Assembly: GCA_964349395.1 (NCBI GenBank)
Contig: CAYGGA010000001.1
Coordinates: 811-64,810, forward strand
Origin: an uncultured Gammaproteobacteria bacterium
GTDB lineage: Bacteria; Patescibacteriota; Microgenomatia; Woykebacterales; RBG-16-39-9b
DNA: 64,000 nt
Direction: 5' to 3'
The notes beneath the pieces were generated by a model, which saw only the letters and a list, made by a program, of their open reading frames with translations, searched no databases and was not told where the DNA came from. Position numbers and translations under genes: made by a program. Below are positions 18,870-30,221 of this stretch, piece by piece. Each line of letters opens with the position of its first letter. Position 1 is the first letter of the stretch.

Positions 18870-20168
18870 TTGGCAAAAGAACGAACTATTAGTGCTATTG
18901 ATGTTGGAAGTTCCAAAGTTGTTACTTTAATTGCTACTGGTAGCCGGGAAAGCCAGCTCACAGTGGTGGGTGTTTCCACAGTGCCTTCTCGTGGGCTACG
19001 CAAGGGGCAGGTTGTAGATATTGATGAAGCAGTCCAGGCGATTGCCCAAGGAATCGAGGCTGCTGAAAGAATGGCTGGGTACTCGATTACTTCCAGCTTT
19101 GTCAGTGTCGGTGGTAGTCATATTTCCTCAATAAATTCTCGTGGGGTAGTCGCAGTAGCTGGTAATGATAATGAAATTACCAGTGAAGATGTCCGTCGTG
19201 TGACAGAAGCTGCCCGAGCTATATCTATACCTTCCTCCAGGGAGATAATCCATGTTATTCCTCGTGATTTTGTAGTTGATTCTCAAGAAGGTATCAAAGA
19301 TCCAGTCGGGATGACTGGAGTAAGGCTTGAGGTAGAGACTCATATTATCACGGGTGCGGCCACTTCGATGCGAAATTTGGCAAAATGTATTCAGCAGGTT
19401 GGTATTGATGTTGAAGCTTTGGTTTTTTCTGGGCTCGCGGCCTCCGAAGGAACTTTGACAGAAACAGAAAAAGAACTTGGAGTTGCTTTGATTGACATCG
19501 GTGGTGGCACGACAGATGTGAGTTTATTTGTTGACGGTTCTATTGCCCATTCAGTCGTAATTCCGATTGGTGGTAAAAATATTACCAATGATCTGGCGAT
19601 CGGGCTGCGTGGGTCTTTGGAAAGTGCCGAAAAAATCAAATTAGAGCTCTCTCGAGCGGACAAAAAAGAGACTCGTATTGAAGAGGAAAGCTTGGAAGAC
19701 CGCAAGGAAAAAAGAGAAAAAGAGCGAAAAGAAGACATCTTGGATGTTTCCAAATTGGAGTTAGCTGAAGATTTGGGTGTCTTATCTAAAAAAACTTTAG
19801 TGGATGGCATCATCAAGCCTCGTTTGACCGAGATTTTTACGCTCGTTGGGATGGAGATAAAAAGAAGTGGTTACTCTGGGTTACTGCCAGCAGGAATTGT
19901 GGTTACCGGAGGTGCTTCAGAGACAGTAGGTCTAAGCCAAGTAGGTAAAGAAGTCCTAAGGATGCCCGTAAGAGTAGCTACCCCCACTGGAGTAAGCGGG
20001 TTGATTGAAGAAGTTACCACTCCAGCTTATTCGGGAGCTATTGGCTTGCTGCTCTACGGTGATCGCTTTGCTCCATCCAGTAATAGTTCTTTGCCTGGTA
20101 TGCCCTCTCTCAAGTTCAAACCCAATTTTGGTCGTGTGGTCAATTGGTTAAAATCATTCCTGCCTTGA
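18870..20168 (+). CDS. ftsA: Cell division protein FtsA
   Basis: Actin-like ATPase motifs ISAIDVGSSKV and DIGGGTTD. TTG start. Carries a K/E-rich insertion. Confidence 0.85.
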   Translation: MAKERTISAIDVGSSKVVTLIATGSRESQLTVVGVSTVPSRGLRKGQVVDIDEAVQAIAQGIEAAERMAGYSITSSFVSVGGSHISSINSRGVVAVAGNDNEITSEDVRRVTEAARAISIPSSREIIHVIPRDFVVDSQEGIKDPVGMTGVRLEVETHIITGAATSMRNLAKCIQQVGIDVEALVFSGLAASEGTLTETEKELGVALIDIGGGTTDVSLFVDGSIAHSVVIPIGGKNITNDLAIGLRGSLESAEKIKLELSRADKKETRIEEESLEDRKEKREKERKEDILDVSKLELAEDLGVLSKKTLVDGIIKPRLTEIFTLVGMEIKRSGYSGLLPAGIVVTGGASETVGLSQVGKEVLRMPVRVATPTGVSGLIEEVTTPAYSGAIGLLLYGDRFAPSSNSSLPGMPSLKFKPNFGRVVNWLKSFLP

Positions 20169-20238: not shown

Positions 20239-21303
20239 ATGCTTATTAAACCTGAGATCAATCGATTTGCAAAGATAAAAGTAATTGGTATTGGGGGCGC
20301 TGGTTGTAACGCTCTAAATTCCATGATTTCCCAACAACAAATCCAAGGGGTGGACTTTGTGGCGGTCAATTCTGACGCCCAAGCTCTGCTTACCTGTAAA
20401 GCCGCGACCAAAGTCCAGATTGGTGATCAGCTCACCAAAGGGCTTGGTAGTGGTGGGCAGCCGGAGATAGGCCGTCAAGCTGCCGAAGAGAGTATGGATA
20501 GACTCCAGGAGATGGTAGAGGGAGCGGACATGATTTTTATTACTGCTGGTATGGGTGGTGGTACTGGAACTGGTGCATCTCCAATCATCGCGGAGATTGC
20601 CCGTGATTCTGGCGCCCTCACCGTCGCCGTAGTCACTAAGCCATTCAATTTTGAAGGAGCCAAAAGACGAGTAGCCTCAGAAGAAGGTATTGAAAATCTC
20701 AAAGATAAAGTCGATACCATGATTGTGATCCCCAACCAGAGACTCTTAGATGTCGTTGACAAAAAAATGAGCCTGCTGGAAGCTTTCAAAGTGGCGGATA
20801 ATGTTTTGGGCCAAGGTGTTCAAGGAATATCTGATATCATTGTTCTTCCTGGTTTGATAAATGTCGACTTTGCCGATGTCCGAACGATTATGAATAATGC
20901 TGGTAGTGCATTGATGGGTATTGGTTTTGGAACAGGTGAAAATAGGGCTGCAGCGGCGGCACGAAGTGCGATTGCTTCCCCTCTGCTCGAAGTTTCTATC
21001 GATGGTGCCAAAGGAGTTTTGTTCAATGTTACTGGTGGAAATGATCTGAGTATGTTTGAAGTCGATGAAGCAGCCAAAATCATCTCGTCAGCTGCCGATG
21101 CTGATGCCAATATTATCTTTGGTGCCACTATTGATGAGAGCATGGTCGATCAGGTAAAAATCACCGTCATTGCCACTGGTTTTAATGAAGATGCCCTTCG
21201 TAGTGCTGAAGCTCGAGATGTGGTCCAGTCTTTCCCTGAAGTATCTGACAATTCTGAAGAGTCTGATGAGTTTGACATCCCAGCTTTTATGCGTCAACGC
21301 TAA
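20239..21303 (+). CDS. ftsZ: Cell division GTPase FtsZ
   Basis: GIGGAGCNA motif and tubulin signature GGGTGTG. Confidence 0.9.
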
Positions 21304-21340
21304 TGTCATTGCGAGGAATATAATGACGAAGCAATCTAAA
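21304..21340 (-). repeat. Inverted, degenerate copy of the ~35-bp gattgccacgcttcgctcgcaatgacaatggg motif, bounding the GIY-YIG gene on the left
   Basis: tgtcattgcgag...cgaagcaatc, compared by eye with the reverse complement of the 21676-21709 copy. Confidence 0.5.
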
Positions 21341-21629
21341 GAATGCGTTTGGATAAATCCTCAAACTGGGGATTTTTAGTTTTAATTAGGTTTAACTTCT
21401 TAATTCTTGAGCCCGCTTTAATTTGTTTCTCCCTTTTAATTGCTTCGAGCACATCAACAAAGATCTCAAAATAAACTAATTTATGGACTTTATATTTTGA
21501 TGTAAATCCAGGGATCAATTCTTTTCTATGCTCAAGGGTTCTTCTTGGTAGGTTATTAGTTATACCAGTGTAGAGAACTGAGTTAGTTTTATTGGTTAGG
21601 ATGTATACAAAGTAATGTTTTAAGGCCAC
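21336..21629 (-). CDS. GIY-YIG nuclease family protein
   Basis: YFVYILTNKTNSVLYTGITNNLPRRTLEH matches the GIY-(x10)-YIG catalytic module; 97 aa. Confidence 0.7.
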   Translation of the reverse strand: MALKHYFVYILTNKTNSVLYTGITNNLPRRTLEHRKELIPGFTSKYKVHKLVYFEIFVDVLEAIKREKQIKAGSRIKKLNLIKTKNPQFEDLSKRIL

Positions 21630-21675
21630 ACCTCTATATTAGAGACTGCTTTACTGTCTTCACAATGACAAACGG

Positions 21676-21709
21676 GATTGCCACGCTTCGCTCGCAATGA
21701 CAATGGGGG
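21676..21709 (+). repeat. ~35-bp motif gattgccacgcttcgctcgcaatgacaatggg (right boundary of the GIY-YIG cassette)
   Basis: Direct near-identical copy at 30172-30205; inverted partial copy at 21304-21340. Confidence 0.55.
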
Positions 21710-21738
21710 TTGACACTCTCCTGGTTACTTGGTTAAAT
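21710..21738 (+). promoter_or_regulatory. Sigma70-like promoter TTGACA-17-TTAAAT
   Basis: Consensus -35 hexamer with 17-nt spacer, upstream of the small ORF at 21749. Confidence 0.35.
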
Positions 21739-21748
21739 TTAATATACC

Positions 21749-21937
21749 ATGCCTAAGAAAACTGCCAAAAGAAAATCCCCAGTCTCGAGAAAAACTGATT
21801 CCTACTCTAAAAATTGGGTCAAATGGGTATTGATTTATTTCTTATTGGGGAGTTTAGTATACCTTTCTATCTACGCTCTCTTTTTCCAAAAAGGTTACTC
21901 AGATCTTAAACCAACTACTACCCAAACTAATCCTTAA
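21749..21937 (+). CDS. Small membrane protein (basic N-terminus plus one TM)
   Basis: 62 aa; KRK-rich N-terminus followed by a hydrophobic helix. Promoter-like element upstream. Confidence 0.3.
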   Translation: MPKKTAKRKSPVSRKTDSYSKNWVKWVLIYFLLGSLVYLSIYALFFQKGYSDLKPTTTQTNP

Positions 21938-30128: not shown

Positions 30129-30171
30129 CCCATCAGGGTCATCCCGAGCCTTAGTCAGCGATCTGAAAACA

Positions 30172-30205
30172 GATTGCCACGTTTCGCTCGCAAAGACAAT
30201 AGGAA
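30172..30205 (+). repeat. Solo copy of the ~35-bp motif gattgccacgtttcgctcgcaaagacaatagg
   Basis: About 3 mismatches relative to the 21676-21709 copy, same orientation. Lies between rpmA and parB, preceded by a gtcatcccgag half-site. Confidence 0.5.
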
Positions 30206-30221
30206 AAAACAAGGAGAATTT

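Follow-up and report, generated by a model that had tools for sequence, protein, structure and literature searches.

Immediately downstream of ftsZ, a 64,000-nucleotide stretch of contig CAYGGA010000001.1 (the window, by which we mean this whole stretch) encodes a 97-residue single-domain GIY-YIG nuclease between inverted copies of a short repeat. We assign the nuclease and its repeats, with high confidence, to the Ssn/SRM modules, in which a small GIY-YIG protein (Ssn) is accompanied by oriented hairpin repeats (SRMs) and whose mechanism would carry over to the window by homology to four Ssn enzymes tested in vitro. The protein is homologous to SsnA of Neisseria and keeps its catalytic residues, the arrangement of gene and repeats recurs across phyla, and the module is present in some and absent from other close relatives. 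The Ssn system was described in 2025 and repeats of this kind were catalogued in 2013; what is new here is a member from the candidate phyla, the host being, to judge by its FtsZ and ParB matches, a Woykebacteria-like member of the Patescibacteria.

The nuclease gene, ssn (21336–21629, minus strand; GTG start, TAG stop), follows ftsA (18870–20168) and ftsZ (20239–21303) and precedes a small membrane-protein gene, a minus-strand open reading frame (ORF) of 126 residues and pyrG. It is the sole GIY-YIG ORF in the window. Pfam PF01541 covers residues 6–78 of the product (E=2.2e-15), with no second domain detected. The product and the SsnA orthologue of N. gonorrhoeae are 45% identical in an ungapped pairwise alignment of 85 residues (E=2e-25), and a tblastn search of a plasmid collection (7.3-Gb database) returned two N. 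gonorrhoeae chromosomes catalogued there as plasmids (E=1e-15). This gonococcal orthologue, rather than the N. meningitidis sequence, is our anchor for SsnA; it was recognized by its 94 codons, by Tyr 6, Tyr 17 and Glu 64, and by the surrounding copies of NTS, the neisserial repeat, which fit the published SRM pattern. Window residues Y9, Y20 and E67 align gaplessly with Y6, Y17 and E64 of SsnA and are invariant across 25 homologues; all 22 columns that are invariant in these homologues are retained. The E value against the gonococcal orthologue lies below the limit by which SsnA homologues were originally collected (E<1e-10; PMC11893778).

Comparisons with other GIY-YIG proteins are more distant. 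By profile, the closest solved structures are 1zg2 (BH0048, E=2.2e-7) and 1ywl (EF2693, E=4.8e-4), UPF0213/YhbQ-like proteins of the same size and fold family as the window protein, to which they are far less similar than SsnA is. A PDB search found no Ssn structure, only distant UPF0213 entries. The catalytic tyrosines are 11 residues apart in both the window protein and SsnA; in Escherichia coli YhbQ the spacing is 10 residues. No specific model in NCBIfam, PADLOC or PHROGs matches the protein, the latter two giving neither an anti-phage defence nor a phage-family match.

The repeats fit tightly around the gene. Copy 1 (TGTCATTGCGAGGAATATAATGACGAAGCAATC; 21304–21336, plus strand) is a long form of 32 nt plus the T of a TGTC tag, lies downstream of ssn and antisense to it, and makes up the entire 33-nt ftsZ–ssn spacer, beginning right after the ftsZ stop codon (21301–21303) and ending on the G of the ssn TAG stop (21336–21338; a 1-nt overlap). 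Copy 2 (GTCATTGCGAGCGAAGCGTGGCAATC; 21676–21701, or 21702 with the T of the tag, minus strand) is a short form of 26 nt plus that T, upstream of ssn and in sense orientation. Between copy 2 and the start codon, a relaxed pattern picks out a degenerate sense copy (GTCATTGTGAAGACAGTAAAGCAGTC; 21644–21669, minus strand); at L004, the homologue locus closest to this one, its counterpart is GTCATTGCGAACAAAGTGAAGCAAAC, immediately before the start. Copy 3 (GTCTTTGCGAGCGAAACGTGGCAATC; 30172–30197, or 30198 with the T, minus strand) has two mismatches to copy 2 and occupies the rpmA–parB spacer, between the end of the L27 gene (30128) and the parB start (about 30222). Eight nucleotides from it, with the AATC ends facing, the relaxed pattern finds an inverted partner (GTCATCCCGAGCCTTAGTCAGCGATC; 30138–30163, plus strand).

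The window total is three strict and two degenerate copies at two loci. In dinucleotide-preserving shuffles of the window, the 26-mer had 0.00 matches and the gapped pattern 0.03, which excludes chance for the strict copies. The relaxed pattern gives about two chance matches per window, and the degenerate copies are credible because they adjoin strict copies in the expected orientation, not from that pattern alone. A preliminary description of this DNA had placed three copies at these positions, with the 97-residue minus-strand ORF between inverted copies, and both statements hold. It had also put a gene-less third copy upstream of parB, correctly as to position, and called it a MITE-like solo terminal repeat (MITE, miniature inverted-repeat transposable element). 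Given the degenerate partner, this ‘solo’ copy is in fact one half of an inverted pair, better called a REP/REPIN-like pair of putative nuclease target sites (REP, repetitive extragenic palindrome).

We used the family alignment to find 80 homologue loci in genomes. The motif GTCATTGCGAG...GCAATC is present within 300 bp of the homologue at 51 of the 80 loci, and on both sides of the gene at 38; the 260 kb of these loci contain 167 motifs against about 0.02 expected by chance (our own estimate). Among the hosts are Woesebacteria, cyanobacteria, Bacteroidota, Ignavibacteria, Planctomycetota, Chloroflexota, Omnitrophota, spirochaetes and several proteobacterial classes, and the close homologues in other Patescibacteria (L004, L005 and L009–L016) have it on both sides. 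An association of the motif with GIY-YIG genes, raised in the preliminary description, is thus borne out, and the motif travels with ssn homologues across phyla, unlike a ubiquitous promoter or terminator. The commonest layout, at 26 loci, is that of the window: a sense (+) copy upstream and an antisense (−) copy downstream. The downstream copy lies −1 to +4 nt from the stop codon at 17 of 37 homologue loci, again as in the window.

The repeat is modular. Constant arms, GTCATTGCGAG and CGAAGCAATC (or GTGGCAATC), enclose a centre of 4 to >30 nt, often a GC-rich hairpin whose sequence is unrelated from one repeat to the next. Minimum-energy folding forms the outer stem ATTGC/GCAAT in 94 of 122 distinct repeats; copy 2, for example, is predicted to combine it with a GCGAAGC mini-hairpin (−3.5 kcal/mol). 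Conservation is strongest in the unpaired GTCAT and AATC tags and in how these tags are oriented with respect to ssn; TGTC precedes ATT in all three strict window copies. The window repeat and Neisseria NTS are built on one frame, in which a stem–loop stands between a GTCATT tag and AATC. Constant arms around a freely varying inner hairpin point to the parts read by the enzyme, information that matters if Ssn enzymes are developed as programmable cutters of single-stranded DNA.

Homologues on plasmids and chromids present a continuum of repeat classes, with canonical NTS-type repeats in Aeromonas and Azospirillum, GTCATTCTGAG...AGAATC repeats in Planktothrix, CCTCAT-tagged units in Sinorhizobium and CGTCGCCCCGTG... 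repeats in Novosphingobium. Several share the sense/antisense layout: Aeromonas (canonical NTS type), Novosphingobium and Shinella have the same order of + copy, gene and − copy.

SsnA of N. meningitidis is a 94-residue single-domain GIY-YIG protein that binds NTS (CGTCATTCCCGCGMAVGCGGGAATCYRG) as single-stranded DNA only, in one orientation only, and cuts it a few nucleotides upstream; mutating Y6, Y17 or E64 abolishes cleavage, and RNA is not bound (Chenal et al., Nat Commun 2025; PMC11893778). Three more Ssn homologues, each with its own flanking repeat, behave in the same way, and SRMs lie at 71% of homologue loci, on both sides at 42% (PMC11893778). We infer from this kinship that the window protein, too, would cleave single-stranded DNA. 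It would recognize its repeat solely in single-stranded form and solely on the GTCATTGCGAG...GCAATC strand, binding the hairpin together with the unpaired tags and cutting a few nucleotides 5′ of the GTCAT tag; the rpmA–parB pair would be an additional, gene-less target site. A cut 5′ of the tag, combined with the layout of sense SRM, gene and antisense SRM, puts the predicted cuts at the outer edges of the cassette, one per strand. The likeliest biological role would be the processing of repeat-bearing single-stranded DNA, such as incoming transforming DNA as in Neisseria, and it would probably also include the spread or maintenance of the repeats, as RAYT transposases serve REPINs.

Several observations weigh against the assignment to Ssn/SRM. 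The published SRM pattern, HGTCWYN(0-2)YYVSBRHN(0-5)WNVSBRGN(0-2)RNCYNB, has no match in the window and matches near only 1 of the 80 homologue loci. The same regular expression does find the NTS consensus, as well as the repeats of Neisseria, Aeromonas and Azospirillum; it misses the present class because it requires two pyrimidines at the stem start, where the class has GC. The pattern is a search tool derived from 29 genomes and no definition of the Ssn family. As the class travels with ssn and yet escapes this pattern, surveys based on it undercount Ssn–repeat pairs. At N. gonorrhoeae ssnA, the nearest NTS copies are oriented oppositely (− upstream, + downstream), so the + gene − layout is not universal. 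The start-codon context of the window gene is poor, AGAGG ending 1 nt ahead of the GTG, and the hairpins of the window repeats are weak (−2.8 to −3.5 kcal/mol), with z-scores that are not significant.

Close relatives supply both filled and empty versions of the two window loci. Comparison of the junction downstream of ftsZ, proposed in the preliminary description, found an empty site: L001, whose FtsZ is 95% identical and in which ftsZ, the small membrane-protein gene, the minus-strand gene and pyrG follow one another as in the window, has neither ssn nor the repeat. Since homology to L001 resumes at the TTGACA of the neighbouring promoter, the window-specific segment runs from 21304 to about 21707, which is the cassette and almost nothing more. 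The cuts predicted from the published position of SsnA cleavage would fall within a few nucleotides of these boundaries. The L001 spacer is no cassette remnant (best local alignment score 9, shuffle mean 9.9). In L003 (FtsZ 90% identical), a HAD hydrolase gene stands at the position of ssn, and more distant relatives have other neighbours. At the second locus, the gap between the L27 gene and parB is about 94 nt in the window against 3 and 8 nt in L103 and L104 (ParB 87–88% identical; L001 and L002 come from the same samples), which lack the ~85-nt stretch with the SRM pair. It follows that, at each of the two repeat loci, a tight housekeeping junction has received a lineage-specific addition. 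The window cassette itself is base-for-base identical in three independent assemblies.

A different small insert is found right after ftsZ in L001 (1630–1692) and in L002 (5066–5171), whose FtsZ sequences are 95% and 91% identical to that of the window. It carries the motif GGTTAGCGAAGCGCTC, which the window lacks, and behind this motif the final ~20 nt of ftsZ appear again as a displaced copy. The displaced end in L001 reads ccgcctttatgcgtcaacgctaa, its final 17 nt identical to the end of the window ftsZ. This arrangement is suggestive of an element that goes into ftsZ at its 3′ end and brings with it a replacement for that end.

A further, independent case of filled and empty sites comes from cultured bacteria, in the sufB–sufC spacer. 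In Azospirillum lipoferum 4B (L111, NC_016623.1 254912–256390), this spacer contains ssn, with one repeat pair on either side of the gene; A. ramasamyi, A. oryzae and strain B510 have flanks 95–97% identical, but there the site is empty and the spacer is about 90 nt. Shinella sp. PSBB067 (L236) has a different ssn cassette in the sufB–sufC spacer, 6 nt past the sufB stop. Two genera thus have differing repeat variants in the same spacer, which is empty in close relatives; the shared location reflects either repeated use of one site or an old insertion followed by many losses. Together with the ftsZ and rpmA–parB junctions, these filled and empty sites in close relatives are concrete cases for asking whether and how Ssn modules move.

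The comparisons bear on the idea that SRM–ssn–SRM is an autonomous selfish cassette moving as a unit, with the nuclease as its mobility enzyme and gene-less pairs as non-autonomous MITE- or REPIN-like derivatives, a parasite and not a host function. We hold this possible, though on balance doubtful. It accounts for the absence of the cassette from L001 and of the rpmA–parB pair from L103 and L104, for the alternation of filled and empty sufB–sufC sites in Azospirillum and the separate cassette of Shinella in that spacer, for homologues in unrelated housekeeping contexts (ftsK, rpmG, priA), and for a window segment whose ends and the predicted Ssn cuts are only a few nucleotides apart. Yet no target-site duplication is present at the window, Azospirillum or Shinella junctions examined, no direct repeats were found flanking the cassette or the rpmA–parB pair, and no transposase or integrase is present. 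Filled and empty alleles differ through replacement of the spacer, not by a clean insertion; the window has one ssn copy, identical in the three assemblies, and homologues are each confined to a single, fixed locus within their population. A nuclease by itself is also unable to rejoin DNA. The arrangement recalls IS200/IS605 elements and MITEs in having a gene between repeat ends, hairpin recognition in single-stranded DNA and gene-less miniature derivatives, but differs in having no transposase, no target-site duplication and a copy number of one. Because its ends are inverted, the window cassette would be recognized on opposite strands, whereas IS200/IS605 elements move a single strand. Repeat pairs with a gap of ≤40 nt occur in both orientations (+ − 17, − + 14), so gene-less pairs are not simply gene-deleted cassettes, and we do not claim the rpmA–parB pair as an internally deleted one. 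The mobile cassette of the preliminary description is accordingly supported in part: both loci look like insertions into tight housekeeping spacers, while active mobility, with neither target-site duplication nor transposase found, is at most a possibility. The boldest version of the idea we consider rather unlikely. It would make SRM–ssn–SRM and its derived gene-less pairs a still-active mobile element that inserts after housekeeping stop codons (ftsZ, rpmA, sufB) and crosses phyla into minimal Patescibacteria genomes, with the GIY-YIG single-strand nuclease as its mobility enzyme and as the ‘missing transposase’ of the CGTC/TGTC-tagged REPs.

Two other explanations give the partnership of nuclease and repeat little or no weight. 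The repeats might act chiefly at the level of RNA or transcription, in roles that have been suggested for classical REPs: as terminators, as mRNA stabilizers or, between ftsZ and the convergent ssn, as an insulator. The connection with the nuclease would then be secondary; this seems to us quite improbable. Their positions right after stop codons (ftsZ, ssn, L27), between genes in the same direction or convergent, are as Di Nocera et al. (BMC Genomics 2013; PMC3733652) report for REPs. A promoter-like site (TTGGCA-16-TATATT with TG; 21741–21768, minus strand) upstream of the SRMs, known from its consensus match only, would, if used, place copy 2 and the degenerate copy in the ssn 5′ untranslated region; this is weakly indicated, three such sites being found where shuffles give 2.1. 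Against an RNA role, the hairpins are weak and have no T-run, the sole terminator-like site on the ftsZ strand is another hairpin (21355–21375), and the best-conserved parts are unpaired, oriented tags, which fit recognition of one DNA strand by a protein and not a symmetric terminator. SsnA has no RNA binding (PMC11893778), and Rfam contains no relevant family, whether at gathering thresholds over the whole window or in E-value mode over 21200–21800. The other explanation, a free-standing GIY-YIG homing endonuclease of the phage Seg or I-TevI type with inverted repeats around it by chance, is so improbable as to be effectively refuted. In its favour are a weak resemblance to 1mk0, the catalytic domain of I-TevI (E=0.4), and a hit to the TIGR01453 group I intron endonuclease model (E=0.0014) that is far below the cut-off. 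It fails because the 97 residues comprise a catalytic domain only, with no DNA-binding domain, and because there is no phage or intron context and no PHROGs or PADLOC match; chance, moreover, is excluded for the repeats, and the alignment to SsnA counts against it as well.

Set beside the described Ssn systems, the window module is alike in its single-domain GIY-YIG protein of ~95 residues, the catalytic Tyr/Tyr/Glu, the flanking oriented GTCAT...AATC hairpin repeats and the additional gene-less copies in intergenic spacers (PMC11893778). It differs in the repeat core, ATTGC/GCAAT with a variable inner hairpin where NTS has an 8-bp TTCCCGCG stem, and in the orientation of the repeats around the gene, opposite to that of the N. 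gonorrhoeae locus. The host also differs, as does the distribution: the Patescibacteria window has few copies in 64 kb, against hundreds clustered at surface-protein genes.

By sequence, the window repeat belongs to the superfamily of CGTC-tagged REPs and their TGTC variants. Di Nocera et al. (PMC3733652) defined this superfamily, which includes Neisseria dRS3 (equated with family CGTC-1) and Rickettsia RPE-4/6, noted TGTC, a common variant, and CCTC among the tags, and found no dedicated enzyme, stating that the repeats “apparently lack a dedicated transposase”. Shared features are an unpaired tag at one end, A–T pairs at the start of the stem, a short unpaired tail, and a frequent arrangement as inverted dimers in the intergenic spacers that follow coding regions. 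In the described families the stem runs uninterrupted for 8–9 bp and the loop has 4–5 nt, whereas the window class has a 5-bp outer stem (starting with ATT), an internal loop and a variable inner hairpin, 26–59 nt in total; the Patescibacteria also lie outside the five phyla covered in PMC3733652.

The module further resembles RAYT/REPIN systems (REPtrons), in which a single-copy gene is flanked by short hairpin repeats that its product recognizes as single-stranded DNA and gene-less inverted pairs are scattered in spacers. Here the enzyme is a GIY-YIG nuclease in place of an HUH/Y1 tyrosine transposase, with no known strand-transfer chemistry, and the tag is GTC in place of GTAG; the resemblance is an analogy only. 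Chenal et al. had already drawn it, as well as noting the insertion-sequence-like layout and proposing domestication (PMC11893778).

Further loci outside the window add smaller observations. Among IMG/VR viral contigs, at least 120 loci have the GTCATTGCGAG...GCAATC pattern and one has an ssn-like ORF nearby; the chance estimate is of the same order, and these matches say little about carriage by phages. Some contigs within L114–L233 are rich in the motif, for example L186 (15 copies) and L190 (8 copies). On a Planktothrix agardhii plasmid (L109, NZ_LR882964.1 18247–19716), an ssn homologue 58% identical to the window protein is bordered by arrays of the GTCATTCTGAG...AGAATC variant and lies between an MmeI-type restriction-modification gene and DISARM drmA, a defence-island location that hints at a possible role against foreign DNA.

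The gonococcal sequence NZ_CP119142.1 (1880719–1882973; L097) is a 2.17-Mb chromosome filed in PLSDB as a plasmid. Its ssnA frame has no canonical in-frame start: it begins ATT ATA TGC ACG GTT TAT, and an ATG close by lies in another frame. Gonococcal ssnA may use a rare start codon or contain a frameshift.

In the window, the terminator-like hairpin on the ftsZ strand (AAATCCTCAAACTGGGGATTT TTAGTTTTAA, with its T-run; 21355–21375, plus strand) lies inside the 3′ coding region of ssn, in the codons for KNPQFEDL, and could be the terminator of ftsZ. At the other locus, the mechanically made ORF list gives parB an upstream extension to a TTG start (window 30174–30221) and translates the repeat as MPRFARKDNRKKQGEF, and in some Ssn homologues from databases the last residues derive from the repeat (...IASSR in P0084, for instance). 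False N- or C-terminal extensions in annotation can therefore arise from repeats of this kind.

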